From an uncultured delta proteobacterium (lineage in GTDB: Bacteria > Desulfobacterota > Desulfomonilia > UBA1062): a DNA stretch of 64,000 nucleotides. Shown piece by piece: positions 1,440 to 18,719 of this stretch (within the stretch, counting starts at the first letter, position 1; the number at the start of each line of letters is the position of its first letter). Both the position numbers and the translations under genes were made by a program. The DNA lies in contig CAWCTR010000007.1 of the NCBI GenBank assembly GCA_963798485.1, forward strand, positions 1-64,000, given 5' to 3'. A model generated the notes under the pieces. That model was not told where the DNA came from. It did no database searches and saw nothing but the letters and a program-made list of their open reading frames with translations.

Positions 1440-4400
1440 CTTTTCAGAAATGGATAGTGGGCATGGACACAACTTCGCCAAAGAAAGCTTACATGTTTCA
1501 ATGGAGCCACTTCTTTTCAGAAATGGATAGGCAGATCAGATTAAGGAAATCGCTAAGATCTTCGATCTGTTTCAATGGAGCCACTTCTTTTCAGAAATGG
1601 ATAGAAAGCTTATTCCAAGGGAAGAATGTCTTCAGGAAATAAAGTTTCAATGGAGCCACTTCTTTTCAGAAATGGATAGACGGGGAAAATTCCCGCAAAC
1701 TACACAATCCATAAATTGTTTCAATGGAGCCACTTCTTTTCAGAAATGGATAGGATTGCCAATGGCTATTGCGTGCGGTTTGTCCAGTTCGTTTCAATGG
1801 AGCCACTTCTTTTCAGAAATGGATAGGGCTCGAACGGAATTCTGAAGTATTTCAATGTAACATAGTTTCAATGGAGCCACTTCTTTTCAGAAATGGATAG
1901 ACTTGATGGTATGGCAATTATCATCAGGCAAAAAGGGTTTCAATGGAGCCACTTCTTTTCAGAAATGGATAGCTTTCCTGACCCCTGATATGTTCTCCAT
2001 GATCAAGGCGTTTCAATGGAGCCACTTCTTTTCAGAAATGGATAGGTTTTCTTTCCAACGGGTACCGATGGAGAGATAACGCTGTTTCAATGGAGCCACT
2101 TCTTTTCAGAAATGGATAGATCAATGGTAGTGCTGGTCGTAGCAAGTCTATTCCTTACGGGTTTCAATGGAGCCACTTCTTTTCAGAAATGGATAGCGGT
2201 TTCCCACCTTCAATTCTATAATATGGTGAAACGGTTTCAATGGAGCCACTTCTTTTCAGAAATGGATAGACGATCTAGGTCAGGTTCGACCCGGAAAAGG
2301 AAGGGTGTTTCAATGGAGCCACTTCTTTTCAGAAATGGATAGAGTGCCCCAATAATAGAGTTATAAGAATAATTCCAAGTTTCAATGGAGCCACTTCTTT
2401 TCAGAAATGGATAGCTTTTCCCAGCATCCTTCTGGGAAAATGTAAGCAACGCGTTTCAATGGAGCCACTTCTTTTCAGAAATGGATAGGCCATTAATGAA
2501 GGAGATCCGTCCGTATACCTTGTCTGTTTCAATGGAGCCACTTCTTTTCAGAAATGGATAGATGAGTGGGTCAGGGGAGGGCATCTAACACTGAACATGT
2601 TTCAATGGAGCCACTTCTTTTCAGAAATGGATAGGCTATACTCTGCTATCCCCTGCGATTGGAGCTTCCCTAGTTTCAATGGAGCCACTTCTTTTCAGAA
2701 ATGGATAGGGAAAGTTTTTTCTTGACGCGGGAGAAGGCATTTTTGGTTTCAATGGAGCCACTTCTTTTCAGAAATGGATAGAATCATATAAGGTTGTCCA
2801 AGATTGTATGAAGGGTACGTTTCAATGGAGCCACTTCTTTTCAGAAATGGATAGATCCTCTTTTATTTCGGCGGTGTTGATGCCGTTGGGTTTCAATGGA
2901 GCCACTTCTTTTCAGAAATGGATAGGCAGTTAGCCCCAATCACCTGAAAGCAAACGTGTGGAAGTTTCAATGGAGCCACTTCTTTTCAGAAATGGATAGT
3001 TATTTACAGGAGCAACAGATCGATCAGCTCAAGATTGTTTCAATGGAGCCACTTCTTTTCAGAAATGGATAGGGTAAAGCCGGTCGAATGGATGACCCAA
3101 ACAGCATACTGTTTCAATGGAGCCACTTCTTTTCAGAAATGGATAGCGATGGAGAGGATTTTTCTTTGATCTCGGATGTGGTTTCGTTTCAATGGAGCCA
3201 CTTCTTTTCAGAAATGGATAGACCAGCCGTATGCGTTTCTGATCTCTTTATTCGCTCTAGTTTCAATGGAGCCACTTCTTTTCAGAAATGGATAGAGGCC
3301 CGAAAAACGAGAACTTGACAAAATAATGTCGGTGTTTCAATGGAGCCACTTCTTTTCAGAAATGGATAGGAAGTGTACCCAATTCCTCCCGCCCCTTAAA
3401 AGGAGCGTTTCAATGGAGCCACTTCTTTTCAGAAATGGATAGAAAGGTATCTTTGGGCATCGACTTAGTTAAATGAGAATTGTTTCAATGGAGCCACTTC
3501 TTTTCAGAAATGGATAGATTATGAAGTACGCCGTAGCAGTTTTAATTCTGCTTCGTTTCAATGGAGCCACTTCTTTTCAGAAATGGATAGAATGATACTC
3601 AGAGACAAATCATTAATCTGCGATTGATGTTTCAATGGAGCCACTTCTTTTCAGAAATGGATAGATCTCCGCAACACAGAAAGTAGTAGCCGAGCATGGA
3701 CAAGTTTCAATGGAGCCACTTCTTTTCAGAAATGGATAGTTCGCCTTGAAACGGGCATTAAAAATGTATAGCTTGAGTTTCAATGGAGCCACTTCTTTTC
3801 AGAAATGGATAGGTTGCAATCTGGTACCTATGCACTGCAATAAATATGGTGTTTCAATGGAGCCACTTCTTTTCAGAAATGGATAGGTTCGTGCTGGCTA
3901 TTGTCATCTTTATTTTTAGTCTCGTTTCAATGGAGCCACTTCTTTTCAGAAATGGATAGCACGTACGAAATGTTCGTACACAATTATCGGCATAACGGTT
4001 TCAATGGAGCCACTTCTTTTCAGAAATGGATAGTCATAAATTGTGTTGAGCATTCTTTCATTATAAAAGTTTCAATGGAGCCACTTCTTTTCAGAAATGG
4101 ATAGACAAACGACCAATTTCATTAACATATTTGGTATGTTTGTGTTTCAATGGAGCCACTTCTTTTCAGAAATGGATAGTTCGGATGGGGAAGGTTTGAT
4201 GTCGGCACCAGTTCTGTTTCAATGGAGCCACTTCTTTTCAGAAATGGATAGCCACGTTAGATTCGCGCATTGGTGATTGGACTATAGCGTTTCAATGGAG
4301 CCACTTCTTTTCAGAAATGGATAGACGACCGTAATATTGCCTGGCACGCACGCGGACACGAGTTTCAATGGAGCCACTTCTTTTCAGAAATGGATAGGAG

Positions 4401-6819
4401 GTAAAACTTTATCTTGCCGCATGTGAGTTGTGGAGTTTCAATGGAGCCACTTCTTTTCAGAAATGGATAGAATGTTATGGAGTGATTGAAAGATGGCACC
4501 AAGCATAAAGTTTCAATGGAGCCACTTCTTTTCAGAAATGGATAGATGACTAGAGTGAAGCATATTAATAATTTGGCTCTGTTTCAATGGAGCCACTTCT
4601 TTTCAGAAATGGATAGATAAGAAACAGGCCGCTGAGCTAGAGAGCAAGTCTGGTTTCAATGGAGCCACTTCTTTTCAGAAATGGATAGACGATCTGTAGC
4701 CGATGCCCTCGGAGCCGTGGAGTTAGGTTTCAATGGAGCCACTTCTTTTCAGAAATGGATAGAACGTTATGCACATATTGGCTTTCCTTGCCAAGCTCCA
4801 GTTTCAATGGAGCCACTTCTTTTCAGAAATGGATAGACCAAGTGGCTCAGAGCCTTACAGCAGACCACCATCGTTTCAATGGAGCCACTTCTTTTCAGAA
4901 ATGGATAGGTTGATGCTGCAAAATTAATCACGGAAAATGTCAGAGAGTTTCAATGGAGCCACTTCTTTTCAGAAATGGATAGTGAATTGCCTCCAGTTCT
5001 GGGGCCACAGCCACGTGAAGTTTCAATGGAGCCACTTCTTTTCAGAAATGGATAGAGATACGAGATGCAAGAAACCTACAGGGTTTATACGAGTTTCAAT
5101 GGAGCCACTTCTTTTCAGAAATGGATAGTTTTGAATGGTTTATGTAAAGACAGTATGTTGCAGCAAAGTTTCAATGGAGCCACTTCTTTTCAGAAATGGA
5201 TAGTTTAATTTCATATGGTTGCTGGTGAAAGCGAAATAAAGTTTCAATGGAGCCACTTCTTTTCAGAAATGGATAGCGAGAAGAAAAAGATGCATTGCTT
5301 AAACGTATCAAGGTTTCAATGGAGCCACTTCTTTTCAGAAATGGATAGCTACGTTCCGGCAGCCATATTACTGGCCATCATTGGAAGTTTCAATGGAGCC
5401 ACTTCTTTTCAGAAATGGATAGCTCAATAAAGGAAGGGGCGATTATGGCTTTAGAGGGGTTTCAATGGAGCCACTTCTTTTCAGAAATGGATAGCGGGGG
5501 TCGAGTTTGAACATTTTAGGATCAATACGACCGAGTTTCAATGGAGCCACTTCTTTTCAGAAATGGATAGAGCGGGTATAAGCAACGAGTTGGTAATAAA
5601 GTTTTTGAGGTTTCAATGGAGCCACTTCTTTTCAGAAATGGATAGAAAAGAAGATGGTTGGGATGCCTGCGAGGAGTTCCAGGTTTCAATGGAGCCACTT
5701 CTTTTCAGAAATGGATAGGTACTCGTTATGACGGCTTGGGGGCTTGACGCATCGGGTTTCAATGGAGCCACTTCTTTTCAGAAATGGATAGCGAAATTCA
5801 GGTTAAAGAGAGTCCGGTTCCGTTCTATGGTTTCAATGGAGCCACTTCTTTTCAGAAATGGATAGAGCAATATCCGCATTGTTGGTAATCCCGTATAGCT
5901 GGCGTTTCAATGGAGCCACTTCTTTTCAGAAATGGATAGGGACCAAGAGAAGATATTCTTGCCAATAACAAGAAGTTTCAATGGAGCCACTTCTTTTCAG
6001 AAATGGATAGTATTATCGTGACGCCATAGATGGCTGGAACAGAATAGGAGTTTCAATGGAGCCACTTCTTTTCAGAAATGGATAGAAAAAATGCGGTGAA
6101 TAACACGATTGATAATGTTAAAGTTTCAATGGAGCCACTTCTTTTCAGAAATGGATAGAGCAATATGAATTGGATGGCAGGTTGGTGGCTAACTTGTTTC
6201 AATGGAGCCACTTCTTTTCAGAAATGGATAGGCAAACCTACATTTGGCTTTGGATGTAGTCAATGTCGCGTTTCAATGGAGCCACTTCTTTTCAGAAATG
6301 GATAGAGTAGACGAGGGAGAAACCGTTATCGGAGAATGCGTGTTTCAATGGAGCCACTTCTTTTCAGAAATGGATAGCACTACCATGCGGACAGGCACCA
6401 GCTTTAGCATATTCGAGTTTCAATGGAGCCACTTCTTTTCAGAAATGGATAGTCGACTGGAAGATCAATCTGCGAAAGGTTTATAACATGTTTCAATGGA
6501 GCCACTTCTTTTCAGAAATGGATAGGTTGAAACACCACTAAAGAAAGAATATAAAGTGGGTTTCAATGGAGCCACTTCTTTTCAGAAATGGATAGCAATC
6601 GGCGCGGCCGAACACGTTTGGCCAGTCGAGAATCTGTTTCAATGGAGCCACTTCTTTTCAGAAATGGATAGATCGCGGTAAACGAAGCAATTACGCCTGA
6701 TACAGTTTGGTTTCAATGGAGCCACTTCTTTTCAGAAATGGATAGAACAGAAATCGGCAAGATGGTTGCCGAAGAGTTAATGGGTTTCAATGGAGCCACT
6801 TCTTTTCAGAAATGGATAG
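1440..6819 (-). CRISPR. CRISPR array: 73 intact 36-bp repeats (1495-6819) plus a partial repeat (1440-1457); 73 spacers of roughly 34-41 bp
   Basis: Invariant repeat GTTTCAATGGAGCCACTTCTTTTCAGAAATGGATAG on +, counted by hand, period about 73.5 bp. The reverse complement ends in ATTGAAAC (canonical 3' end), and the AT-rich leader lies at the 6820 side next to cas2. Confidence 0.99.
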
Positions 6820-7069: not shown

Positions 7070-7366
7070 TCATACTATAATAAACTTCTCTTCTTTATCC
7101 TCATGGTGTACGCCCAGAAATTCTATCCTATCATCAGCTCCTCCTTCCGTAGGACCCATATCAATGATCATTATGCGATCTTCATCGACCTTGATCAGCT
7201 CACTAAGAATTGCCACCATCTCCACCCTGCCCTTCTGAGTGAGATCGCAGCGAAAAACGGAATAATGGACCGGCTGGCCGAACCCTTTCATAGCAGTATG
7301 AACTCTGCATAGCCTCTTTCTGTCCATAATATCATAGCTCACTACATAGCAATTCAGTCCGCTCAT
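7070..7366 (-). CDS. cas2: CRISPR-associated endoribonuclease Cas2
   Basis: YVVSYDI...KGFGQPVHYSVFRC motifs, 98 aa, directly after cas1. Confidence 0.97.
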   Translation of the reverse strand: MSGLNCYVVSYDIMDRKRLCRVHTAMKGFGQPVHYSVFRCDLTQKGRVEMVAILSELIKVDEDRIMIIDMGPTEGGADDRIEFLGVHHEDKEEKFIIV

Positions 7367-7372
7367 GCATCA

Positions 7373-9073
7373 TCACCTCGTTGTGAAAGCCGGATACTCT
7401 TTTATCTCGCCTGAGAGAACCCTAGCCAAAAGCCGGGACTGTACTTCCAGTATCCTTCGATTGTTCACCTTATACCCAAAGATGGGATGGACGACCTCGA
7501 TCTGCATGCGGTGCTCGTAACCTGCAACCACCTTTCTCCTGGCTTCAGGGGTTAACGATATCCCGATGCCTGTCTTAATAAAATCGTTTTCATTAAGCTC
7601 TTCTTTGTTAAAAAGAGTCAGTGCCGTAGAATCAGCTATTATTGGCCGGAACTCCTCCATCATATCCAGAGCCAATGCCGGTCGCCCGTACCTGGGCTGA
7701 TGGTAGAAGCCGAGATAGGGATCAAAGCCTACAGCCAGAACGGTCGAGAAGAGTTCCTTGGTCAGTATGCCGTAGAGATAGGAGAGGACGGTATTGACTG
7801 GATCTCTAGGGGGTCTCTTATTCCTGTTTTGGAACGAGAAGTCTTGAGAGCACTTGAGCATGTTTCCAAAGCGACCAAAGTAGATCTCAGCTGCGGCACC
7901 TTCGAATCCGAGCAGACTCGGCATCCGCGATGCGCTTTCCGCCTGGCCAGCGAGCCGCTCCAGAGAATCCAGCACCTCCGACGGAACTGCGGGATCATTT
8001 CTGCGCAAGAGAATCCTACAGTTCTCGATCTTACCAGATACGATTTTCCGGGCTATGGATAGCGAGCGCGCCTCATTACCGGCCCACTGGAACTGCTTTA
8101 TGCGAAGCTCCACATTCTTGTGGCTCATGCCGAGACAGATACCCTGGAACCAACCTCCATGAGAAAAATGCAGCACAGGAACGCCTCGTTGCATCAGCTC
8201 GACAGTAGCCGGTGTGGTAATCTCCACTCCACCATAAAGGCAGACCTTGGAGAGCTCCCGGATCCTGGCATCGCTGATCTTGCCCTCATCATGGGACCAG
8301 ACCTCCAGGCGCTCGCCGCGCTTCCTAACCGTCTTCCCCTGGCCGACGACGTAAAGAGGTACCTGGTCATCCCGCATGGGAAGAAGCATCCTTACCTTCT
8401 CCTCCCTGGGCTCACTTTCCAGATTTCTTGGTTGCTTCTTTTCCGCCTCCATCTCTCGCAGCAGGTTGACCTCATCGGGCAGGCATATGCCCGCCAGAGA
8501 GCAGCGGTTGCAGCGGGAGCTGCTCTGCAAAGGAGGCGGCACTTCGCCACGCTCAGCAGTGTTTCGCAGTGAGTCTAGCAGGGCCTTTGTTCGGTCCATC
8601 AGGGCAAGATCGAACTTCACGGGCACCCTTTCCAGGGAGTGAATGAAATAGACCATGCCCTCTTCACACTGAAAGCCGTTCTCGCGCAGGGCTAGGCACT
8701 GAGCAGCGAGCTGGACCTGAAAAGGCTCATAGAGGCCCGCTGGAGGTTTGGGTGCCTCACCGCGCTTGTATTCCACGGGAGTGACTTTGTTGCCATCTCC
8801 TTCCAACAGATCTAATCGGCAGCATACTCCCACCTGCGGTGCGGTTAAAGAGACCGAGCGGGCATGAAAGGGCTGGAAATCATCTGGAATAGCGTCTTGC
8901 TCGGCATCGACCCAGCGATGCTGGAACCTGCCGTCTACAGTCTCAGCGCTATCCTGGAACTCTCCCTGAACCCACTGGATGTAGCAGAGTCGCGGACAAT
9001 AAGCAAAGGCTGCGAGCATGCTAGCTGGTATGAGATCGGGAGAGATGCCTTGATTCTGATCTGATTCTGCCAA
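7373..9073 (-). CDS. cas1: Cas4-Cas1 fusion (type I-G style adaptation integrase)
   Basis: N-terminal Cas4 (YCPR, PVEYKRG, QLAAQ, CNRCSLAGICLP Fe-S cysteines); C-terminal Cas1 (GFEGAAA, RNKRPPRDPVN, GFYHQPR, DMMEEFRP). Start placed at TTG 9073 behind AGGAGG (9081-9086), not at the ORF-track 9169. Confidence 0.95.
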   Translation of the reverse strand: MAESDQNQGISPDLIPASMLAAFAYCPRLCYIQWVQGEFQDSAETVDGRFQHRWVDAEQDAIPDDFQPFHARSVSLTAPQVGVCCRLDLLEGDGNKVTPVEYKRGEAPKPPAGLYEPFQVQLAAQCLALRENGFQCEEGMVYFIHSLERVPVKFDLALMDRTKALLDSLRNTAERGEVPPPLQSSSRCNRCSLAGICLPDEVNLLREMEAEKKQPRNLESEPREEKVRMLLPMRDDQVPLYVVGQGKTVRKRGERLEVWSHDEGKISDARIRELSKVCLYGGVEITTPATVELMQRGVPVLHFSHGGWFQGICLGMSHKNVELRIKQFQWAGNEARSLSIARKIVSGKIENCRILLRRNDPAVPSEVLDSLERLAGQAESASRMPSLLGFEGAAAEIYFGRFGNMLKCSQDFSFQNRNKRPPRDPVNTVLSYLYGILTKELFSTVLAVGFDPYLGFYHQPRYGRPALALDMMEEFRPIIADSTALTLFNKEELNENDFIKTGIGISLTPEARRKVVAGYEHRMQIEVVHPIFGYKVNNRRILEVQSRLLARVLSGEIKEYPAFTTR

Positions 9074-9100
9074 TCTTGAGCCTCCTTTTCTTTTTATCAT

Positions 9101-9120
9101 ATGATTTTCAGCGATAAAAA
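9101..9120 (-). promoter_or_regulatory. Putative promoter/operator of cas4-cas1 (TATA-like TTTTTATC plus GAAnATCAT)
   Basis: 16/20 identical to 21212-21231 upstream of the csb2-cmr operon, same orientation. Confidence 0.5.
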
Positions 9121-9153
9121 TGATCTGAGAACTGTCTCCACAAATTATCCGGT

Positions 9154-9277
9154 GTTTCAATTGGGCCACGACTTCATGTCATGGAATTTTTTACCATCGA
9201 TTCGGATGGATCATGTGGCTTGATTCGACAACAAACGAGGTTTCAATGGACCACATCTTATTTAGACATGGGAATAG
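9154..9277 (-). CRISPR. Degenerate two-repeat mini-array with one ~49-nt spacer-like segment
   Basis: gtttcaattgggccacgacttcatgtcatggaat (from 9154) and gtttcaatggaccacatcttatttagacatgggaatag (9240-9277). Both keep the GTTTCAAT end (ATTGAAAC handle) and the CCAC/ATGG core of the main repeat. Confidence 0.75.
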
Positions 9278-9406
9278 CGACGGTCTTGAGCCAGTCGCAT
9301 CGCTTACGCTCATATGCCTCTGGCCTTGCCCATCCGTCTGGCCGGATGGCTCCTGGCCGATAAGGGGGCCTATTATCCAGAGCTGATGATCGTGATTTTA
9401 TTTTTC

Positions 9407-9694
9407 TTAGGGTATGGTTACATCAATTACTTGGCCCTGAGTGAATGAGGAGTTGTGGCTGGCGACGATGACTGCACCGAGCTTCGGATCGTAGAAGGCG
9501 ATGGCAGCAGCGGGCGAGCCGTGCAGCAGGTGTAACGCCATGCCATAACGCCATATGGGAGCCCGGCCCTCGACGATCACCAGCGAGCCTCGGGGGATTT
9601 CCGGGAGTGGAGGCAGCGGCTTGGCGGGAGTGATGGGCGAGGAGACGGCGATGGAGTAGATGACGTTTGCTGGAATTGTCTTGCTCTCCGCCAT
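9407..9694 (-). CDS. csx3: Csx3/Crn3 cyclic tetra-adenylate ring nuclease
   Basis: GRAPIWRYG...H...YDPKLGAVIVASH signature, 95 aa. Confidence 0.92.
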   Translation of the reverse strand: MAESKTIPANVIYSIAVSSPITPAKPLPPLPEIPRGSLVIVEGRAPIWRYGMALHLLHGSPAAAIAFYDPKLGAVIVASHNSSFTQGQVIDVTIP

Positions 9695-10126
9695 CTAGGA
9701 TTCTCCTTCTCTCGTTTTGATAAGCTTTTGACACTGGTTTAGTACTTCCCGGGCCTTGGAAATCGCTTCAAGGGCATCCTCTCTCGTATAGAGACTCTCT
9801 GGGGGCATCCCGCTCTGTTCATCCCCGTAAAAGCTGATCTCACGTTCAGCTCTCAGAAACCGGGAGATGGAGGCGAGATATGGAATCTTGCCATTGAAAG
9901 GCTCAGGATAGCGATTTGAATACTCTTTCAAGATCGGCCCTACATCGTGGATACGCGGAACCTCGATTCGCGCCCAGAGGAGAGCAGATTTTAGCGCCAG
10001 CTCGACTGCTTCCTGAGAGCGTCGCACTACCATGCTCCAGGCCTCTTTTTCCATCAGGTAATCTGCCTCTTGTATGATGATCGAGGCCCTCGACATCATT
10101 CTTTCAAGAGCATCGCCGGGATTCAT
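9695..10126 (-). CDS. HEPN domain protein (partner of minimal nucleotidyltransferase)
   Basis: RRSQEAVELALKSAL...PRIHDVG...EREISFYG...YTREDA pattern; ATGA overlap with the MNT gene. Confidence 0.85.
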   Translation of the reverse strand: MNPGDALERMMSRASIIIQEADYLMEKEAWSMVVRRSQEAVELALKSALLWARIEVPRIHDVGPILKEYSNRYPEPFNGKIPYLASISRFLRAEREISFYGDEQSGMPPESLYTREDALEAISKAREVLNQCQKLIKTREGES

Positions 10127-10644
10127 GGTTCTATGACCTCCTCAGGGATTGATGACCTGGACAGATCCCAGTACCGGAACTTTCCCATGATTTTGCGCTC
10201 TGCGCCTCCATTCTTAAGATGCTCCTTTATCGCAGACAACAAGATCTCCAAAAACTTATCCCGGTCAAAGAGAATTATGGCTTCCTGGGACATATCCAGA
10301 TATAGAGGATGGAACTTTCTGGCCTCGTTCCGGGTGCGGATCACCTCTACAAAGTCAGTATAGATACCCTGCCTCCAGAGCTTCTCCAGCTCTGGCGTTA
10401 GCGACTCACGCATCGGGTCAAGCAGATGTCGCCTGCTAAGCATCCCAGAAGGGGCTTCCTGGAGAACGATGAATAGGTCGATGTCGGAGCCTGGGCCCGC
10501 CTCTTTGCGGGCAACGGAGCCGTAGAGGGCTATCGAGACCAGACGGTCGCCTAAAGTCTCTTGGGCTGTTGCAGAGTAACGCTTTGCGAGATTATGCAAA
10601 GCAGCGTTCAGCTCGACATTTGAAGTTGGCATAATATCATTCAC
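10123..10644 (-). CDS. Minimal nucleotidyltransferase (MNT, Pol-beta fold)
   Basis: IALYGSVARKEAGPGSDIDLFIV matches the GSx10DxD motif. Confidence 0.9.
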   Translation of the reverse strand: MNDIMPTSNVELNAALHNLAKRYSATAQETLGDRLVSIALYGSVARKEAGPGSDIDLFIVLQEAPSGMLSRRHLLDPMRESLTPELEKLWRQGIYTDFVEVIRTRNEARKFHPLYLDMSQEAIILFDRDKFLEILLSAIKEHLKNGGAERKIMGKFRYWDLSRSSIPEEVIEP

Positions 10645-10672
10645 TGGATTGATTTTGCCTTCACTCGACTTT

Positions 10673-11665
10673 TTATGGTTCCTCGATAATTTTTTTTATT
10701 TTCTCGATAGATTTTCTTGCCACTTCCTGGACATCAAAGGATTCATTTTCTGTTGTAAGCAATTTTTTCAAAGGTTCTATAGCTCTCTTATCCTTGATCT
10801 TTCCGAGGGCTTCTGCAGCCCTTAATTTCACATAAATAGAGTCATCCGTCAAAGCCCCAATTAGAGCGTCTAACGCTTTCGGATCTCTAGTCCCAAGATG
10901 CCCGAGAATCTTTGCTGCTCTCCATCTTACGCTACTATCCCTATCTTTAAGATCCGCAATCGATGCATCTATATTGAATGCATAGTTGACCTCTGCTTTG
11001 TCTTTTGTCAATAGCTTGAGCATTATATCTAATACTCGATCTGAGTTCTCAAAAAACTTACGTGCGAAATGTTTGCTTCTTCTTGGACGTTCAATAAAAT
11101 CGTTCAGATACTCTAAATCGTTAAGCCGATATGTGCTATTGCCATCCATAAATATATATGTTTTTTCATATTCATCTATTATTTCATTTAAACAAGACTC
11201 TATTGAGTATAGATATAGAGCGATATCTCTGGCTTTCAAGAATAGATCTGTATTCTCAGCTTCTTTTTTAAGATATTCAAATTTCAATTGGACATCTATT
11301 AGTGAAAGCATTTGCTCATTATATATCTCTACTTTTATTGTTGACTTATCGGCAGATAAAGCTCTTGCTCTCAATATTCGTCTTATTCGTTTAGATGAAT
11401 TGTAGGCAGATAAAAAGTCTTTTAAGAATTTTCGGTATAGATCCCTCTGTGCCTCATATTGTTTTTGCGCTCTCCTATATTCTGAGAGCCACCAAGGGAG
11501 CATTAATGTCCCAATCACAACTATGAAAGCAAATTGATAGGTGACCTTAATGACTTCGATATATAGCTGTGTCAGCTGTTTAGCATTTGAAAAAATGGGA
11601 TAAACCCACAAGGTTAGAGCAAAAGCTACTGCTACGACCAAAATGGAAAAAGCACATAAGGCCAA
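10673..11665 (-). CDS. Membrane protein: two N-terminal TM helices, helical middle domain, C-terminal HEAT/PBS-lyase repeats
   Basis: Hydrophobic segments at about aa 3-25 and 42-60; DRDSSVRWRAAKILG / DDSIYVKLRAAEALGKIKDKRAIEPL repeats; visibly AT-rich; start codon uncertain (TTG). Confidence 0.8.
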   Translation of the reverse strand: MALCAFSILVVAVAFALTLWVYPIFSNAKQLTQLYIEVIKVTYQFAFIVVIGTLMLPWWLSEYRRAQKQYEAQRDLYRKFLKDFLSAYNSSKRIRRILRARALSADKSTIKVEIYNEQMLSLIDVQLKFEYLKKEAENTDLFLKARDIALYLYSIESCLNEIIDEYEKTYIFMDGNSTYRLNDLEYLNDFIERPRRSKHFARKFFENSDRVLDIMLKLLTKDKAEVNYAFNIDASIADLKDRDSSVRWRAAKILGHLGTRDPKALDALIGALTDDSIYVKLRAAEALGKIKDKRAIEPLKKLLTTENESFDVQEVARKSIEKIKKIIEEP

Positions 11666-11752
11666 TTTTATTTTTCTTTGCGGAGGTCCCGTTTTGAATC
11701 ACCCTAATTATTTCATGCAGGATCTTCAGTCGTTGGTTGTTTACATCGATTA

Positions 11753-12715
11753 CTATCCTTTTGCTAAGATCAGGTTATCCAATTCGTGAATTTTCAGATC
11801 GGCTATTAGTTTCTGGTTTTTTTCATGCGTAATTTCGTTTTGTCGAGTTAATGCTTTAAATAGTGGTGATTCTAGCATTGATAAGATTCGGTCTCCCTCT
11901 TTGCTGAGGCGATTTGCATCTTTCTGCCCTTCGGCGCGATTACCCTTGCGCTCAACGCCAAGCATAATATTGAGATAATCACGCACAAAAGCATCTGTCT
12001 TTAGATTGTCAAATTTTGGATCACTGGCCCCCTTAAGCCGTGATAACAAGTTCTCGCTGCTTATCCACTCTCCTGGATTTGAGATATTAAATTCCTTCAG
12101 CTCGTGCAGGACTGCCTGATAGCGCTCATCTAGCGAGGTTTTGAATACATAAAGATCTCTGAAATCGAACCTGCTTTTATCGTTACTAAATGGCTGTAAG
12201 TATTTATTATCAGCTCTATCGGCAACGAAAGTATAGTAAAGATATGGGATTAATCCACTTAGATAAGCAGTCTGCATTATAGCTGCATTAAGCACATTTG
12301 ATCCTCCTGTGATGTTAGCCCAAATATGGTTCCCAACATCGCCAGGTCTATGGAACTTGAGAAGGGTTTTTGCAATAGTATCAAAACAATCTCCCAAGTT
12401 GTTCACATCCAAATCGCATACGAAGTAATCTCCATCGCCAATTTCTGTGTAGAGATATTCAGCAATTATGTCGAGCGAATTTTCCCTACCGGCCCATTTC
12501 TTAACAATGGCCCTTTCCTTCATGTAATCATTATAAATTATGTCAGAATTCGCTTTCACATTGCCATTTATGATTCCAGCAGATGTGAAAATTACAACTT
12601 TTTCGACAATTTTTCCATATTCTGGGGAGTCCTTTCGTTCGCGCTTCAGATAAGATAGACCGGCGGTTACAGCTCCTGGTGATGTGCCCAATCCGCAAAA
12701 ATGAGTAATACCCAT
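11753..12715 (-). CDS. CARF domain protein with probable C-terminal winged helix-turn-helix
   Basis: GLGTSPGAVT (CARF motif I), VVIFTS, IWANITGGSN (variant of DxTGGxK), YLYY. The C-terminal ISSENLLSRLK...NRLSKEG looks like a wHTH; no HEPN Rx4H or PD-(D/E)xK motif recognised. Confidence 0.75.
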   Translation of the reverse strand: MGITHFCGLGTSPGAVTAGLSYLKRERKDSPEYGKIVEKVVIFTSAGIINGNVKANSDIIYNDYMKERAIVKKWAGRENSLDIIAEYLYTEIGDGDYFVCDLDVNNLGDCFDTIAKTLLKFHRPGDVGNHIWANITGGSNVLNAAIMQTAYLSGLIPYLYYTFVADRADNKYLQPFSNDKSRFDFRDLYVFKTSLDERYQAVLHELKEFNISNPGEWISSENLLSRLKGASDPKFDNLKTDAFVRDYLNIMLGVERKGNRAEGQKDANRLSKEGDRILSMLESPLFKALTRQNEITHEKNQKLIADLKIHELDNLILAKG

Positions 12716-12803
12716 TATCTCACCTGAATCATGTATCCTGTCTTTTCGTCAATAGATATTAGGTTGAGAACTGGATGGCCACTCGTAATGCGCATCATGC
12801 TCT

Positions 12804-14093
12804 TCACTTCCTTCGCCGTTCCTTCATCTTGCGTATCGACTCCTCCATTGATCCAGGAACGACAAAATCGTACACATCGCCGCTGATCCCTGCAACCTCC
12901 AGTAGAACCTTCCGGCCTATCTCCCAAGATGGAAGCTTTCCACCCTTGACAGCCCTCAAGAATCCGCCGAAACCATCATCCGCTCTAAAATATAACCGAT
13001 TATAACCCTTGGGATCAACTTCTCTAACAGCCTCTATTTTGACCCCTTTGCTATAATTGGGCTTCATAACATCGCTTTCAACCACTGACACAGGTGCCTT
13101 GGATCTACTTTCCTCTCCGGTCATCATTTGGGCGCCAATCTTAGAACTTGCTTCAATCGTGGGAGATGAAACTATTTCGGAGGCTCTATCGGTCGCCATT
13201 TGTGTTACTTCCGATACATGTTCCTCGATGCACCCTTCGTTTGCCGTTATCCTCAGCCTTCCATAGCCCGAATTGGTCTTGCCTCCAATTCCCCAATCTT
13301 TGAGGGCATCTGTCAGCAGGTCAAAGGCTAGTTCGGCCCACTTTTGCCCCTCTACTTTATTCTCAGCTTCACACATTTCCCCGACAACATCACAAGAGAC
13401 TACAATATGGAATGTCCCAACTATTGAGAGAAAAGTCACGGGATTCGGACTGTCGAAGTCAGTAGGTGCAGTGGGTTCACCTGAGGGCAGGATCGTGCCT
13501 GAATAGTAATCACCGTGATGTGGAGTCATGACATCTGTCTTTAGTGAATCTACCACGCTATTTGGTGTAATCCAAGCATCATGGAAGATAATGTGCCCTG
13601 AGTCCTTGTCGACTGAGTCAGCTGTGCTTCCGAAGATGGCCTTGTGGTATATTTCGTCTCGTTTGAATCCCGGCTTCTCTGCTCCCCTGCCCCAAATGCG
13701 ATCACAGTAGTTAGAAGCCAGCCCCTTTAACGCAGTTCCAGGAATGATGGGGGTCCCGTAAGTATGGTGAAGGGTGATCCCGGTCTCAAGCACGTTCTCA
13801 CCGCCAAGACCTATTATCAGCCTTCCCACTGTCTCAAACTCTCCTTCTTCCTTAGGGCTGTGGATCAAATTCTTCTGCCTACTAAAAGTTAATCGATAGA
13901 CTTCGGTCGAGTTTTGCAAGGATTTTTGCATCTCCGCAAAGAGCTCCTTCCGAGCCTTGTGAAACTCGTCTTTTTTCTCATTGTTCTCTTTTTCCTGAAC
14001 TTGAAGGAACCTATCCCTGAGGAGGCCAGCGTTAGCACCGCTCCCCCTCCTCCAATCTGAGATGTCACGCCTGCATGCCTCAGCCACAATCAA
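12804..14093 (-). CDS. cmr6: Type III-B RAMP subunit Cmr6 with C-terminal extension
   Basis: GRLIIGLG...LETGITLHHTYGTPIIPGTALKG, DVMTPHH, PTDFDSPNPV, GIGGKTNSGYG. Confidence 0.95.
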   Translation of the reverse strand: MIVAEACRRDISDWRRGSGANAGLLRDRFLQVQEKENNEKKDEFHKARKELFAEMQKSLQNSTEVYRLTFSRQKNLIHSPKEEGEFETVGRLIIGLGGENVLETGITLHHTYGTPIIPGTALKGLASNYCDRIWGRGAEKPGFKRDEIYHKAIFGSTADSVDKDSGHIIFHDAWITPNSVVDSLKTDVMTPHHGDYYSGTILPSGEPTAPTDFDSPNPVTFLSIVGTFHIVVSCDVVGEMCEAENKVEGQKWAELAFDLLTDALKDWGIGGKTNSGYGRLRITANEGCIEEHVSEVTQMATDRASEIVSSPTIEASSKIGAQMMTGEESRSKAPVSVVESDVMKPNYSKGVKIEAVREVDPKGYNRLYFRADDGFGGFLRAVKGGKLPSWEIGRKVLLEVAGISGDVYDFVVPGSMEESIRKMKERRRK

Positions 14094-14482
14094 TCCCTCT
14101 TAATCTCCAGCTCCTTCTCGTCTTTCTCCAGTAGCGCCTCAGAGTAGCGTTTAAGCCAAGTTGCAGCCTCAATTGCCTCAAAGGATAGCCGCTGGTACTC
14201 CATTAAGCCTGCCTCCCTGCTAGCCTTGCCAAGGTCTTCATTCTCATTACTTGACATTACCTTGGCGAGATGCTTAAGATAACCGGTTTTCTTTTCTTTG
14301 GCATCTACGAAGGCAATAGTTTGAGCAAGGCCGCATGCCTGAACCAAGGCCGGAAACTTCTTGGCCAAATTAACGTACTTCTCCTTTGCCCCTTGATTTA
14401 CCTCTGGCAAGGATTCGATCTCTTTAACGCAAGCATAGGCAAGTTGTGCTCGCTTTTGCTGACTTGTCTGAGCTGGTGACAT
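14090..14482 (-). CDS. cmr5: Type III-B small subunit Cmr5
   Basis: QKRAQLAY, KFPALVQACGLAQTIAF, WLKRYSEA; lies between cmr4 and cmr6. Confidence 0.93.
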   Translation of the reverse strand: MSPAQTSQQKRAQLAYACVKEIESLPEVNQGAKEKYVNLAKKFPALVQACGLAQTIAFVDAKEKKTGYLKHLAKVMSSNENEDLGKASREAGLMEYQRLSFEAIEAATWLKRYSEALLEKDEKELEIKRD

Positions 14483-14491
14483 AGCATAGCC

Positions 14492-15406
14492 TCAATGGAA
14501 CAGGCATCTCGCTCTGCCTTTTCCTACAGTTGCCTTTCCCCCAATTTGAAGATCTAAGCCTTTCGTAGGACGGAGCCTATCCAAGATATCTTTTTCAGTT
14601 ATGTTATACTTACCAAATATTTTGTCGCACCACGCGATTCCAGCCAGTATAGCTTCCGCAGGAAGCGCTTCCTCATACCATAGAGCATGTTTAGAGACTA
14701 TCTTCTTGTCGTCATCGATTTTGATGTGTGCAGCTACCTCCGTCCCTGTCATCGAAAGGAAGTTGAAACAATCATCAGAGATCACGGCGAAGCGATCTTT
14801 GAATATTTGCTGCCAGGTATTATCCTGCGGAAAGAGAAGTCCTGCAAACTTCTCGGCCCAGCTTTCTGCTGCTACATCTGGCTTTGCAGTGAAGTCCAGA
14901 TCCTCCAAGAAGACCTTACCGTCGACATACAACTTCGATCCTGTGAGAAAAATCTCTTTTTCGCTTGGATTTGGAGTTGATGGCAGGCCGTCACTTCCTG
15001 TTGCAGCCATATCCCTCCTTAGCCTTTCAAGCACAAATGGACTTGTGACATAGGCGAAGGTGCCATAGAGACTGCGAACTGGCAGACAGACAATTCTGGC
15101 ATCTGTCAAGACTAGGCTCCCAGAATTAGCGTTTCCGCTATCATCTTCTGGTTTTCCAAAAAGAGCATTAATCAGCTCATCCCACTTTTTTCTCTCGTTC
15201 TCATCTTTCTCAGCCTCCTTTTTCTGATAGAAGTAGTCCCTCATTACACCCTTGACTGCAGATCCTGGCACCATCGGCCAATTCGTGACCTTCTCCCTCA
15301 TGATCGGCATATCGATGAATCCGACTCCTTTACCAGAGCCCACATGAAGTGGAGTGATCGCCTGCAGCCAGTACATCATCCTCATATTGATTGCCAAATC
15401 ATTCAC
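14492..15406 (-). CDS. cmr4: Type III-B backbone RNase Cmr4
   Basis: TPLHVGSG...IDMPIMRE (catalytic Asp present), PGSAVKG, LWYEEALP, QIGGKATVGKG. Confidence 0.97.
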   Translation of the reverse strand: MNDLAINMRMMYWLQAITPLHVGSGKGVGFIDMPIMREKVTNWPMVPGSAVKGVMRDYFYQKKEAEKDENERKKWDELINALFGKPEDDSGNANSGSLVLTDARIVCLPVRSLYGTFAYVTSPFVLERLRRDMAATGSDGLPSTPNPSEKEIFLTGSKLYVDGKVFLEDLDFTAKPDVAAESWAEKFAGLLFPQDNTWQQIFKDRFAVISDDCFNFLSMTGTEVAAHIKIDDDKKIVSKHALWYEEALPAEAILAGIAWCDKIFGKYNITEKDILDRLRPTKGLDLQIGGKATVGKGRARCLFH

Positions 15407-15408
15407 CC

Positions 15409-16692
15409 CTATTTCTTGTCTTTCTTATGTTCATCATCAAAAAAGTTCCAAACGCCCCATAATGCAAGGCCGAAACCATCTCGCCAGTCCTGCCCATCTG
15501 ATTCTTTATCGCTGACCGACCTTAGCCAGAGTCTTTCGGCCAGTGCTGAGCCGTCGCCTGCAAGAACCTCAAAGAAGTAAACAGCACCAGATGGAACAAG
15601 TCTTCGAATTGGCTTTGGACCTGGCCTCGGGCCGTTCTTACGACACTCAAGACTCCATCCGGAAATGGGCTTCCATCGATCAATCGATGCTGAGATCAGT
15701 CTTAATTTCAAGTCTGCCGGATCATCGAGAGGGGGAGTGCCAACGATCGAGCCCCCCTCAAGCTTCAGCCAGCCTGGAAGCCATCCCTGAGAGAACACTG
15801 CAGGAGTTGCCAAGACCATACGAACTCGCTGTTTACCAGTCCTCTTCTTTTGATCGTCCAAGGCCTGGCGAATCTCCTCAGGGAAACTCCAGACCTTCTG
15901 CATACTATTGGTCGCTTCAGTTTTCCAGTGGGCAAGACGCCTCTCGCCTCCAAATGTGCCAAATGAATCGATTAATTCTAATTTCTTTTCAAAGATTCCG
16001 GTAGCATCAAACCTTGCAGCAAGCTGTATTCCTTTGGGCTGTCCCTCGTGAGAGAGATCCAGCCCAACAGTCGTGAAGAGCATACCTTCATCCGATGATC
16101 CAAGTTCAGGAGAGATCTGGACATGGACTCTCGAATCTTTCTGAGGATAGGGAAGAAAATCCGTTCCAGAATTAACTTTCTCGGGGTCCGGAGGAGCCTC
16201 GAATTCCTTTCCTAGAGGATCTTTCAGCCACTTAATCATCATTTCCGCCGACCAGAAGTAAGGTACTGCAGCTTGCTTGAAAATCCTGCACGTCGTAGGA
16301 AGCAACGTCGGAAGAAGATTTCCTGCCGGCAGATCGCAGCCTTCACACTCTTTACCCTCCAACATTTCTTTAAGCTTTATGGGTCGAAGGGCGTATGCTT
16401 GGCGCTTATTCCCGTCATCGCGGACAAGAAGGTCTTTAGGAACGGGAAAGAAGAGCTTGCCGCCCCATAGAGGCAAAGGTCCAGAGACGGAGACATTCTT
16501 CAGAGCGTTAATAATTCCTGCATCCTTAAAGTCTGTTCCTATCTGATTTCCAATTATCGTTCTCAATGAGCCTGCTAGGACCGAGGGATATGGCCAGTTT
16601 AAAGAGCGCATCCGCCTTTGGCCGATCCCAAAGGGACGGCCATCCCTGGCAATGATCGGGTCATGGGGTGTAATGGTCAGATATGTTTCCAT
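15409..16692 (-). CDS. cmr3: Type III-B subunit Cmr3
   Basis: PHDPIIARDGRPF, WPYPSVLAGSLRT, FGGERRLA, LATPAVF, VPSGAVYFF, RDGFGLAL. Confidence 0.96.
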   Translation of the reverse strand: METYLTITPHDPIIARDGRPFGIGQRRMRSLNWPYPSVLAGSLRTIIGNQIGTDFKDAGIINALKNVSVSGPLPLWGGKLFFPVPKDLLVRDDGNKRQAYALRPIKLKEMLEGKECEGCDLPAGNLLPTLLPTTCRIFKQAAVPYFWSAEMMIKWLKDPLGKEFEAPPDPEKVNSGTDFLPYPQKDSRVHVQISPELGSSDEGMLFTTVGLDLSHEGQPKGIQLAARFDATGIFEKKLELIDSFGTFGGERRLAHWKTEATNSMQKVWSFPEEIRQALDDQKKRTGKQRVRMVLATPAVFSQGWLPGWLKLEGGSIVGTPPLDDPADLKLRLISASIDRWKPISGWSLECRKNGPRPGPKPIRRLVPSGAVYFFEVLAGDGSALAERLWLRSVSDKESDGQDWRDGFGLALWGVWNFFDDEHKKDKK

Positions 16693-18719
16693 CAGCAGAC
16701 CACCTCGTCAGTCTTCATTTTCTTCTGGTTGTTCCATTTTGCCTGCTTCATCGCGGACGCTATTTGTCGGGCTAGGATCAGCTCGTCAGCCCTCCTTCCG
16801 ATCTTTTCGTAAGAACCAACTCCGGCTAATAAGCTCTCGATCTCCTCTCTCTTTAAGACCTCTGAGCTTATGCCGCCTGCCTTCTTACGTTTGAGAAGCC
16901 TCCAAGAATCTGCAATAATAAGCTTTTCAAGCTCCTTCTTGGAAATCCCTTCCCAGTTTTTATAATCCTCTGCCAGCTCATGCATGTCGTAGGCAGCGCT
17001 GTCAGGCAGCTCATCCTCACAATGCATCTCTGCCCATCTGAGGAGACGCTTATCGAGGCTGACTTCGCCCTCGGGGTCCCATCTCTCTCGAATTTTGGTT
17101 GGGGCACCGCTTCTTGGGTAGAGGTGGACTGCAAGGCCATTTCTCTCGTCATCAGGTCCTGTTCCCTTCTTTGCCGCCTCTTCAGCTCCCCTTCCTGCGC
17201 TCAGCAGATCTTCTAGAGGTTCCATTGAGTGACCAATGGCAATCCCTACTGAAAGACTTGGTTTGATAGTCTTGTTTCCTTCACTGTATGCAAAGCCTTT
17301 CAAGAGCTTTCCGAAACAATCATGCAGCTCCCTGGCAGCCCGAAGGCAGAAGTCCAATGGAAGAAAAGCCAAGACGTCGTCTCCACCTGAATATACCAAA
17401 CAGCCATGATTATTTTTGTCAACTATTTCTCTGGCCTTCTTGGCAAACTCTGCAAGCTTTTTCGAAAGGCTGCGATGCTGCTGCATATCTTCTCTGGCTG
17501 AGATCACTTTTCCCATTCGGTCGCCATCAGCTACCAGAATCGCAAAATAGCGCCCAGGCTCTCCCAATCCGAAACATTTCTCTTCATCCTTTTTCTCGCA
17601 GCTTTTCTGCAGTCTCTCGACAAATCCTTTTATCTCTTTCAGGTCGTTCCTGTCGCTGTCAGAGAGTTGAGACTCCCAGCCATTCCAGCGCTCACGGTTC
17701 TTCTCATTTGTGTCTATGCTCCTATCTTTAGCCTTCATCATTCTTGCAATTCTGGGAAGATATAGAAGCTGGCCATCGAAGGGAAAACAGTTATAGCGTC
17801 GCTCTCCATTGGGCTGCGACCCAGTTCCCTGGGCGATATAGCCATTTTCTTTTCCATCCTTCTTGCCTTCTGCTCTGATATTTTCGTCACATTTGCGTTT
17901 GATATCATCTAAGAGAGCCCTGGCACCTTCTTCCGACTGGTTGACTCCTCGGATCCATGTATCGAGGGATACTCGCACAATGGATGGAAAAGCCTCAAGC
18001 TTCATCGAAGACAAATCTTCATTATCCTTTTCCTTACGTCGACCAAGCCTCTTGGTCAGGCCAACAGCGCAGAGCTGCTCTCCGGCCTGAAGCCGCATCT
18101 TTAAAACCAGCTCCTTGGGAATATCTTTGCTCTTTTCGAGGATGCTCTCTCTGGCTCCGTCGAGGGAGGACTTTGGGATTCCAGGATACTTCCTCTTTGG
18201 TTGATCGAAGTTCCTGATAGCCTTCCTGCCATCCAGAAGACGCATCAATCTTTCACGATCTTTTCGATAATATTCTGGACGATCATCTCTGAAGGGCACC
18301 CAGGCCGAATAAAACTCGATGACATCACAGACCTGCTCCATCCATATCTCCTCACGAACAAATCCAGGTGCCAGATAATCTGCCAGATCTTTAGCACCCG
18401 CAGCATAGCGCATCCATTCTTTGCGCGCAGCATCCTTAGCACGCTCATTCAACTCGGTGGGATTTTCTCCTTCTCTCAGTTTAGCGAGAATTATGTTAGC
18501 GACATTAAAAGCTCCTGGTTTAGGATCCGGTTTCAGCTCTTCATCTCCTACATTCAGAGCAGGAAAGATGAGTTCCCCAGATCCTGCTATCTCCTTAGCA
18601 GCGGCCTTACTGATCTCAGAGAGAAGATGAGATCCGAACCACAGGTCTCGCGTGCGACGGGCTGAAACAATGAAGTCCTGCACAGGGCCGATGGATAGTA
18701 CATAAAGATATGAGGTCAT
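16692..18719 (-). CDS. cas10: Cas10/Cmr2 lacking HD nuclease domain, Palm GGDD intact
   Basis: Starts directly at SIGPVQDFIVSARRTRDLWFGS; ADGDRMG and YSGGDDVLAF present. Confidence 0.97.
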   Translation of the reverse strand: MTSYLYVLSIGPVQDFIVSARRTRDLWFGSHLLSEISKAAAKEIAGSGELIFPALNVGDEELKPDPKPGAFNVANIILAKLREGENPTELNERAKDAARKEWMRYAAGAKDLADYLAPGFVREEIWMEQVCDVIEFYSAWVPFRDDRPEYYRKDRERLMRLLDGRKAIRNFDQPKRKYPGIPKSSLDGARESILEKSKDIPKELVLKMRLQAGEQLCAVGLTKRLGRRKEKDNEDLSSMKLEAFPSIVRVSLDTWIRGVNQSEEGARALLDDIKRKCDENIRAEGKKDGKENGYIAQGTGSQPNGERRYNCFPFDGQLLYLPRIARMMKAKDRSIDTNEKNRERWNGWESQLSDSDRNDLKEIKGFVERLQKSCEKKDEEKCFGLGEPGRYFAILVADGDRMGKVISAREDMQQHRSLSKKLAEFAKKAREIVDKNNHGCLVYSGGDDVLAFLPLDFCLRAARELHDCFGKLLKGFAYSEGNKTIKPSLSVGIAIGHSMEPLEDLLSAGRGAEEAAKKGTGPDDERNGLAVHLYPRSGAPTKIRERWDPEGEVSLDKRLLRWAEMHCEDELPDSAAYDMHELAEDYKNWEGISKKELEKLIIADSWRLLKRKKAGGISSEVLKREEIESLLAGVGSYEKIGRRADELILARQIASAMKQAKWNNQKKMKTDEVVC

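Follow-up and report, generated by a model that had tools for sequence, protein, structure and literature searches.

Five genes behind cmr6 in a type III-B CRISPR-Cas locus of an uncultured delta proteobacterium: more probably a mosaic than a single effector cassette

Near the start of contig CAWCTR010000007.1 of an uncultured delta proteobacterium (assembly GCA_963798485.1), whose first 64,000 nucleotides were analysed here and are called the window, lies a type III-B (Cmr) CRISPR-Cas locus. Between its cmr6 and its cas4g/cas1g gene stand five co-oriented genes on the minus strand, which encode a CARF protein with a predicted winged helix-turn-helix at its C-terminus (CARF-wHTH), a membrane protein with HEAT repeats (2TM-HEAT, hereafter TM-HEAT), a minimal nucleotidyltransferase (MNT), a HEPN protein and the ring nuclease family protein Csx3. 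A first-pass annotation had proposed that the five genes form a new type III-B effector cassette. The part of that proposal concerning cyclic tetra-adenylate (cA4) signalling, a sole sensor and a combination not described before is supported, but the reading of the five genes as a single module is not. We favour, with slightly better than even confidence, an acquired and apparently active III-B locus whose cmr6-cas1 stretch is a mosaic, made up of units that are mobile on their own, rather than a single effector cassette. The 73 repeats of its array are identical, and both the GGDD motif of Cas10 and the pocket motifs of the CARF protein are intact.

If the stretch is such a mosaic, each of its parts would have its own role. 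The CARF-wHTH protein would be a cA4-binding regulator that most probably acts as a transcription switch in the manner of Csa3, as a slow ring nuclease in the manner of Crn1, or in both ways, and would not be the output. Csx3/Crn3 would be the off-switch for cA4. MNT and HEPN would form an autonomous dyad of the toxin-antitoxin type that came to lie in the island. TM-HEAT would be an orphan gene in the slot that sister loci fill with an effector activated by cyclic oligoadenylate (cOA), and the only candidate for the output.

Composition of the stretch between cmr6 and cas1

The five genes lie directly behind cmr6 as first annotated, with the coordinates and names then given to them. The CARF-wHTH gene (11753..12715, minus strand; 320 residues; PADLOC CARF3--CARF, E 8.5e-15) is separated by a gap of 87 bp from the gene of the orphan membrane protein TM-HEAT (10673..11665, minus strand; PF13646 HEAT_2, E 5e-17, residues 239-318). 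MNT (10123..10644, minus strand; PF01909, E 2e-9), HEPN (9695..10126, minus strand; PF05168, 'HEPN-T' class, E 6e-20; the presumed toxin of the dyad) and csx3/crn3 (9407..9694, minus strand; cA4 ring nuclease family; PF09620, E 4e-20; TIGR02579; PADLOC Csx3, E 4e-24) follow at intervals of 28, -4 and 0 bp.

The genomic contexts of the CARF-wHTH family argue against a fixed set. A scan of one genome per species gave 22 loci of this family, none of which carries a relative of TM-HEAT, and the MNT-HEPN pair is present in one of them only (L005). Type III complex genes are found in 14 of the 22, mostly directly upstream, and in most of these type III-linked loci the last complex gene and the CARF-wHTH start are no more than a few dozen bases apart. 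When 90 open reading frames (ORFs) of at least 80 residues were scanned in 21 of the loci, up to one upstream and up to four downstream of the CARF-wHTH gene (L018 was omitted, having no intact CARF ORF), a classical sensor-effector was found among the neighbours in 10. These neighbours are of Csx1 or Csm6 type in L005, L014 and L017, of CARF-PD-(D/E)xK type in L019 and L021, of CARF_TM type in L006, L013, L016 and L022, and of SAVED type in L006 and L010. Standalone Csx3 occurs in L005, L012 and L016. Because the family so often accompanies effectors with sensors of their own, the CARF-wHTH protein is most simply read as a regulator of signal or expression and not as the output.

Csx15 was also detected in four of the 21 loci, in each case after CARF-wHTH (L006, L015, L021 and L022). 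A Schlafen AlbA_2 protein is encoded directly upstream of the CARF-wHTH gene in two others (L013:9141-9950 and L014:9199-9999). A 2026 paper reportedly describes Schlafen-Csx15 fusions as cA4-activated tRNases.

MNT and HEPN have the arrangement of an MNT-HEPN dyad, with the PF01909 gene 5' of the PF05168 gene in one operon and a 4-nt overlap between them. The studied analogue of such dyads is the type VII HepT/MntA pair, compared to which the MNT of the window scores 22 bits on the NCBIfam MntA model, with a cut-off of 60. The search for HEPN relatives returned 152 at E<=0.001, some with 80-87% identity, and the few named sources are Methanosaeta, Deltaproteobacteria, Acetothermia and Fervidibacter. 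Of 300 other genomes of the phylum, 29 carry the same HEPN subfamily at E<=1e-15, some with internal stops. MNT precedes HEPN in 17 of 20 inspected regions, and 1 of the 20 adjoins cas1/cas2. None of the 20 has CARF-wHTH, csx3, cas10/cmr or the TM family beside the dyad in phmmer searches with the window query set, a set that distant type III genes could escape. Since 29 of 300 genomes carry the pair and just one copy in 20 is near cas genes, we read it as autonomous: it is a self-contained, mobile dyad of toxin-antitoxin type with a patchy distribution.

Whether its HEPN component is an RNase is uncertain, because the Rx4-6H motif is replaced by R95-x6-D102 in this family, with the conserved H60 located elsewhere. 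R92, E94, R95, Y100, G101 and Y113 are invariant, and H60 and D102 nearly so. A variant with D for H and a conserved H elsewhere is listed within HEPN-T (PF05168), and MNT has been proposed to nucleotidylate a conserved tyrosine (PMC3710099). The invariant C-terminal Y113 of the window HEPN fits the tyrosine proposal for MNT-HEPN dyads.

Base composition divides the stretch into three blocks. The guanine-plus-cytosine (GC) content is 0.40 for CARF-wHTH and 0.36 for TM-HEAT, 0.51 for MNT and HEPN, and 0.60 for csx3, with 0.45-0.50 for the cmr genes. The locus as a whole is best taken as an acquired island, given how sparse Cmr6 is among related genomes (among other genomes, 4 of 121 in the same class and 0 of 14 in the same genus gave a match). 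In the three best cmr matches, at 47-51% identity, the order is cmr1-cas10-cmr3-cmr4(-cmr5)-cmr6, then Cas6, then cas1, and some of them have CARF7-DUF2103/RelE-type and RtcR-like genes upstream of cmr1. In a fourth match, which is weaker, a CARF7-DUF2103 protein and Csx1 come after cmr6. Homologous cmr loci lacking the five genes had been named in the first-pass annotation as evidence that would tell against a cassette. For the cassette as a whole this is what was found, as the three closest loci have only Cas6 at the corresponding position.

Several observations weigh against a mosaic. CARF-wHTH and TM-HEAT both have unusually low GC, which fits their joint acquisition as a pair. A TM-HEAT homologue at 78% identity (P0122) and a HEPN homologue at 83% identity that has an internal deletion (P0333) each come from a Logan contig of 12,566 bp, and the two genes are probably neighbours on one contig. 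HEPN and MNT are each single-copy in the window genome, and L005, a III-B locus of an archaeal metagenome-assembled genome, has a homologous MNT-HEPN pair (E ~1e-22 to 1e-24) beside CARF-wHTH, Csx3 and Csx1. The single copies and the recurrence in L005 suggest that the dyad may be more than a passenger. C-terminal GrpB domains were found in two of 29 scanned members of the membrane-protein family to which TM-HEAT is related (P0419 and P0433; Pfam E 8e-38 and 8e-35). GrpB is a nucleotidyltransferase-fold domain, and the fusions hint at a link between the membrane domain and nucleotidyltransferases. Either function, transcription factor or ring nuclease, would fit the modelled CARF-wHTH protein. 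Neighbours were called by our own simple ORF picking, phmmer with the window proteins and PADLOC, which distant relatives can escape. Since type III loci generally vary in their accessory regions, single genes may still have a role in the system.

One alternative is the integrated cassette itself. The CARF-wHTH protein would then be the sole cA4 sensor, would turn on the membrane HEAT protein and/or release the HEPN RNase from control by MNT, and Csx3 would reset the system. The packing of the last four genes behind the 87-bp gap speaks for it, as do the single copies of HEPN and MNT, the combination of CARF-wHTH, Csx3, MNT and HEPN repeated in L005, and the contig that homologues of TM-HEAT and HEPN probably share. 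So does the outcome of genome-wide model searches, in which the SAVED and CARF_RelE controls were silent, that no CARF or SAVED sensor other than CARF-wHTH was found. It is however difficult to reconcile with the lack of TM-HEAT in all 22 CARF-wHTH loci, the self-sensing effectors in 10 of 21, the near absence of cas genes around other copies of the dyad, the three GC blocks and the closest cmr loci. We therefore consider an integrated cassette unlikely.

The CARF-wHTH protein and cA4 signalling

Signalling by the locus can be predicted from three of its proteins. Cas10/Cmr2 (16692..18719, minus strand; 675 residues) has a GGDD palm motif in its translation. Its Cmr2_N domain begins at residue 6, TIGR02577 aligns only from profile position 212, and no HD domain was matched in Pfam and NCBIfam scans of the 675-residue protein. 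These are the features of a signalling-type Cas10 (GGDD, no HD), as first annotated, and cyclase activity is predicted. Csx3 scores 59.1 bits on TIGR02579 (cut-off 55.4) and 71.8 bits on PF09620 (cut-off 21), which places it in the Crn3/Csx3 ring nuclease family, with predicted cleavage of cA4. An HD-less GGDD Cas10, Csx3 and a CARF protein together imply signalling of the cA4 type, in agreement with the first reading.

The CARF-wHTH protein matches no Pfam or NCBIfam family. A search of 5.8 billion clusters returned 128 clusters of relatives at E<=0.001, nearly all of 300-320 residues, from Bacteria and Archaea and 'hypothetical' wherever named. Its AlphaFold2 (AF2) model is of high confidence (predicted local distance difference test, pLDDT, 91.8; predicted template modelling score, pTM, 0.89), and Foldseek placed Sso1393 (E 7e-7), Sis0811 and Csa3 at the top of its PDB ranking (E 7e-7 to 6e-6). 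VIA alignments cover both domains of Sis0811 (Z 11.1, root-mean-square deviation (rmsd) 4.3, 205 residues aligned, 23% identity) and of Sso1393 (Z 11.0, 199 aligned, 22% identity). The CARF domain, residues 1-191, also aligns to those of Card1, Cdn1, Cad1, Can2 and Crn1 (Z 11-13.4). A profile search of PDB sequences gave no link between the family and any solved structure.

In an alignment of 44 relatives, two loops are invariant or nearly so: the one after strand 1 (G10, S12, G14-T17) and the one after strand 4 (W132, N134, T136, G137, N140, N143). The predicted Rossmann-like fold, with these conserved loops after strands 1 and 4, points to the CARF superfamily, an assignment that rests on the matches of the AF2 fold, the conservation of G10-x-S12 and T136-G137-G138, and the PADLOC hit to CARF3--CARF. 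On these models the label CARF-wHTH is right. A hidden HEPN domain of the Csx1/Csm6 type was considered and rejected, as the R-x5-H string of the protein, RQNEITH, is not conserved in the 44 homologues and the C-terminus models as a wHTH.

Among proteins of known function, the wHTH-bearing Crn1 ring nucleases Sso1393 and Sis0811 are the closest comparison. They share the order of CARF and C-terminal wHTH domains with the window protein and are its best two-domain structural matches (Foldseek rank 1-4). The loop G10-T11-S12 resembles Gly9-Thr10-Ser11 of Sso2081 and S12 of Sis0811, residues that matter for cA4 cleavage (PMC10018336, PMC8643638). S12 is near-invariant in the family and K192 is common without being invariant, whereas K129 is near-invariant but replaced by Asn in the window protein. 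After strand 4, however, the window protein has T-G-G-S-N where Sso2081 has Gly-Arg-Lys, and the equivalent of the catalytic Lys169 of Sis0811 was not located. The window protein is also some 45-50 residues longer than the Crn1-wHTH targets (320 compared to 270-275), with an extra beta-hairpin insert at 60-73 and extra C-terminal helices. Its ten PADLOC matches at E<=0.1 are to CARF3, Csx1, CARF1 and CARF8, with none to CARF7, in a library where the presence of a Crn1 model is uncertain. While its best PADLOC match is CARF3--CARF, Crn1 has been placed in CARF7/CARF_m13 (PMC12409355). A ring-nuclease role is thus favoured by the G-T-S loop and disfavoured by the missing Arg-Lys after strand 4 and the unplaced Lys169.

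The other comparison is Csa3, which has the two-domain architecture in common with the window protein (Foldseek E 5e-6) but only 12% identity, and superposes poorly on it as a whole (rmsd ~12 Å over 203 residues). Csa3a is a cA4-binding regulator of CRISPR genes that lacks ring nuclease activity (PMC8699464). Type I-A loci are the typical setting of Csa3, whereas the family described here directly follows type III complex genes. Scans of 9100-13100 for promoters, terminators and inverted repeats gave nothing above shuffled sequences and no clear operator-like repeat. The protein is predicted to be a ring nuclease, a transcription switch or both.

In the scheme that we infer for the locus, binding of target RNA would activate the Cas10 cyclase and yield cA4, as suggested by the GGDD motif, Csx3 and the CARF protein. 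A CARF-wHTH dimer would bind cA4 and alter the expression of the packed downstream genes for TM-HEAT, MNT, HEPN and Csx3. Cmr4 would cleave the target RNA, and Csx3 would remove cA4. The ligand, DNA-binding and membrane steps of this scheme are predictions from the gene identities, folds, distribution and mosaic make-up of the locus.

Such a scheme calls for an output, and the known ones were not found. Pfam, NCBIfam and PADLOC scans detected no known cOA effector in the locus, as had been claimed. The search was extended to the genome assembly, which is 97.5% complete with 7% contamination. Two Csx1/Csm6 models and those for CARF-PDDEXK, CARF_2TM and CARF_ADA had no match genome-wide, so that no Csx1/Csm6 was found elsewhere in the genome. 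The CARF_RelE and SAVED models also had no match, although these are weak blanks since the control genomes were silent too. No known effector was found in the genome as a whole, a result in which NucC, CorA, TIR-SAVED, Csx23 and Cam2/3 had no dedicated model search. A single weak match to CRISPR-Lon, in an 802-residue open frame (E 1.6e-3), was taken as the housekeeping Lon protease. A phmmer search of the genome with 19 accessory proteins of related loci gave only generic sigma-54-type AAA+ matches, through an RtcR-like fragment.

It is unlikely that a second type III locus supplies an effector in trans, because the genome has one array, one Cas10 and no second type III locus. A second Cas10 candidate on contig C17 proved to be a palm2 match to a GGDEF cyclase adjoining an HD-GYP-type response regulator, which leaves one Cas10 and one type III system in the whole-genome search. 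In this the window genome differs from orphan loci in general, as it has no second type III locus or array from which an effector could come.

It might then be argued that the locus has no messenger effector at all. The classical one would have been lost or never have arrived, RNA cleavage by Cmr4 would provide immunity, CARF-wHTH and Csx3 would be leftover or housekeeping removers of cA4, and TM-HEAT and MNT-HEPN would be unrelated passengers. The lack of known effectors in the genome agrees with this, as does the fact that both putative cA4-handling proteins belong to regulator classes. There are also precedents: 133 of 1113 cyclase-positive, HD-less loci have neither a known effector nor a credible candidate (PMC11229360), and 31 loci carry ring nucleases without any effector (PMC12409355). 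On the other hand, the GGDD and CARF pocket motifs are intact, the 73 repeats are perfect, and the genome holds no further type III locus to make use of the signal in trans. It is hard to explain why a cyclase and two cA4-binding proteins should be kept without an output, and we hold this account to be less likely still than an integrated cassette. The locus has the features by which new effectors were hunted in PMC11229360, and Cam2, Cam3 and Csm6-2 already came from such orphan loci (PMC11229360).

The TM-HEAT protein as a candidate output

Within the favoured mosaic, TM-HEAT is the gene to which an output could be assigned. A hydropathy scan and the AF2 model (pLDDT 77.8, pTM 0.53) agree on two N-terminal hydrophobic helices. 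The model comprises a transmembrane (TM) helix at 2-21, a long helix at 30-102 that includes the second TM segment and a stalk, a helical bundle at 117-220 and HEAT repeats at 232-328. The HEAT repeats are well supported by PF13646 (62.3 bits, cut-off 27.7) and PF03130 (45.6 bits, cut-off 20.9), and alphaRep and CpcE align to residues ~227-328 with Z 15-18. Foldseek and VIA otherwise returned HEAT/ARM proteins and generic helical bundles only, leaving the middle domain of the full-length model unmatched. A search of the ESM Atlas gave unnamed clusters only. No similarity to a nucleotide-binding domain was detectable, in fold searches that reached the HEAT part only. With a single PADLOC match at E<=0.1 (HEAT-ARM_XIII), no CARF model and an all-helical structure, the protein does not belong to Cam1/CARF_TM.

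Beyond the HEAT repeats, only 10 of 104 TM-HEAT matches align and are full-length relatives. When residues 61-235 were searched alone against 1.84 billion representatives, however, 405 clusters were recovered at E<=0.001, 45 at <=1e-10 and 4 at <=1e-30. This 2TM-helical family consists mostly of proteins of 220-270 residues that share the helical domain and have one or two hydrophobic helices at the N-terminus, but no HEAT repeats. Among 29 members scanned of 150 listed, none has a Pfam or PADLOC family for the helical domain, and among 25 members scanned none matches Hailong HalA-type or other relevant NCBIfam models.

The HEAT-tailed form itself is rare. In 400 genomes of the same phylum there was one dubious match with 4 stops, and the family profile gave a HEAT match only. 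The family was not found in viral contigs, nor in plasmids, where no two members occur together. A metagenome scan yielded mostly generic HEAT proteins and one contig of 1.7 kb.

The annotated ORF of TM-HEAT starts with TTG. Upstream of it, 11666-11705 (minus strand) encodes, in frame after a TGA, the stretch (F)KTGPPQRKIK, which matches the N-terminus of the homologues P0121 and P0122; a GTG that matches the start of these homologues sits one base out of frame in a run of A. This offset could reflect a genuine shift or an error in the homopolymer, and both TM helices are retained either way.

In its general build, with a helical TM part at the N-terminus and a soluble part in the cytoplasm, and in its place among type III accessory genes, TM-HEAT resembles Cam1, Cam2, Cam3, Csx23 and CorA (PMC11229360). 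Unlike these effectors, it has no detected CARF, REC or CorA-like domain, and its soluble part is a helical bundle with HEAT repeats (Csx23 was compared by description only). Similarities to Hailong, which consists of the membrane channel HalA and the nucleotidyltransferase HalB (PMC13434031), were also noted. As with HalA and HalB, a membrane protein gene is directly followed by that of a small nucleotidyltransferase, and the HalB model weakly matches MNT (E 5e-7). MNT is nevertheless not a HalB, with 29.7 bits against the NF051895 cut-off of 190 and 27 residues covered. TM-HEAT has no match to a HalA-named family, and in the window a HEPN gene follows the nucleotidyltransferase gene.

One possibility, which we put forward tentatively and think unlikely, is that two TM helices, stalk and bundle define a new class of membrane defence effectors. 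Its HEAT-tailed version would be the cA4 output of this locus, transcribed under control of the neighbouring CARF-wHTH, whose low GC and probably whose origin it shares, or gated directly, and the adjacent nucleotidyltransferase and the GrpB fusions would then point to control by nucleotidyl transfer, loosely as in Hailong. The version in which TM-HEAT is a ligand-gated membrane effector like Csx23, Cam1 and Cam2, its bundle or HEAT part binding cA4 and CARF-wHTH acting only as ring nuclease or regulator, seems very doubtful: the gene sits in the slot after CARF-wHTH where other loci have Csx1, Can2-like, CARF_TM or SAVED proteins, its build of two TM helices, stalk helix and soluble bundle is suitable, and Csx23 and Cam2 are known membrane effectors with non-CARF sensor domains (PMC11229360), but it shows no nucleotide-binding domain, its 405-cluster family has no known CRISPR link in searches where its genomic contexts were not read, and it was not found in the 400 genomes of the phylum.

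The wider locus and its significance

The remainder of the operon conforms to type III-B, with cmr1, cas10/cmr2 and cmr3-cmr6 together beside a CRISPR array and all six products above their NCBIfam cut-offs. Upstream of the CARF-wHTH gene, and all on the minus strand, are cmr6 (12804..14093; 429 residues; TIGR01898, E 3e-36, residues about 85-280 of 429), cmr5 (14090..14482; PF09701, E 7e-24), cmr4 (14492..15406; TIGR02580, E 1e-67), cmr3 (15409..16692; PF09700, E 1e-62), the cas10 gene described above and cmr1 (18716..20146; TIGR01894, E 3e-24). In Cmr6, the RAMP domain at about 85-281 is followed by an unexplained C-terminal extension of ~150 residues. In loci L003, L017 and L019 the Cmr6 or Csm5 protein has a C-terminal 'CSD_V' match in PADLOC.

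On the other side, cas4g/cas1g (7373..9169, minus strand; NF049935, 710 bits, cut-off 560), a fused adaptation gene in the style of type I-G, is followed by cas2 (7070..7366, minus strand; PF09827, E 1e-14). A csb2-like gene (20172..21176, minus strand; 334 residues; PADLOC Cas56g, E 6e-47) lies beside cmr1 and matches Csb2, the Cas5/Cas6 fusion of type I-G, over its C-terminal half only (TIGR02165 positions 249-489 of 492). Cas6 was not found in the window locus, whereas in the three closest cmr loci a true Cas6 stands between cmr6 and cas1. As judged from sequence, the csb2-like gene may be a candidate Csb2-derived crRNA-processing enzyme that serves the III-B complex as a stand-in for Cas6. 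A type I-G interference gene was not found in the genome, where the Cas7g model TIGR02570 had no match, as it had none in the control genomes. The system thus looks like a III-B complex paired with a borrowed I-G adaptation module of cas4g/cas1g and cas2.

The array (1495..6819) has 73 identical repeats of 36 nt and 72 spacers, and a genome-wide search identified it as the only one. It is assigned to the minus strand since the repeat, when read as its reverse complement, ends in ATTGAAAC, the 8-nt tag usual in crRNAs. At the far end of the array, where the window starts, are IS66 transposase fragments (99-1431). A DUF790/Bax1-type endonuclease gene (21500-23071, minus strand; Pfam E 3e-111) is found just past the cas genes, and from ~23 kb onward GC content rises and many ORFs overlap.

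Cyclase-positive loci without an effector are already known as a type and have yielded new effectors; about one in eight HD-less type III loci with an active cyclase has no known effector (PMC11229360). With its single CRISPR system, large perfect array and lack of a classical effector, the window locus is a clean case in which to ask what such systems use. The particular combination of genes was not described in the literature searched, in line with the first-pass annotation; the supplementary locus and candidate lists of the Hoikkala papers, outside the scope of that search, may bear on its novelty. The CARF-wHTH family, although unnamed, is frequent in type III loci (128 clusters). If the stretch behind cmr6 is indeed a mosaic, adjacency to cmr6 alone defines no module. 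If TM-HEAT is the output, a function would be found for a sizeable family of proteins that has no name, and a transcription-factor route from cA4 to an effector would become directly testable.

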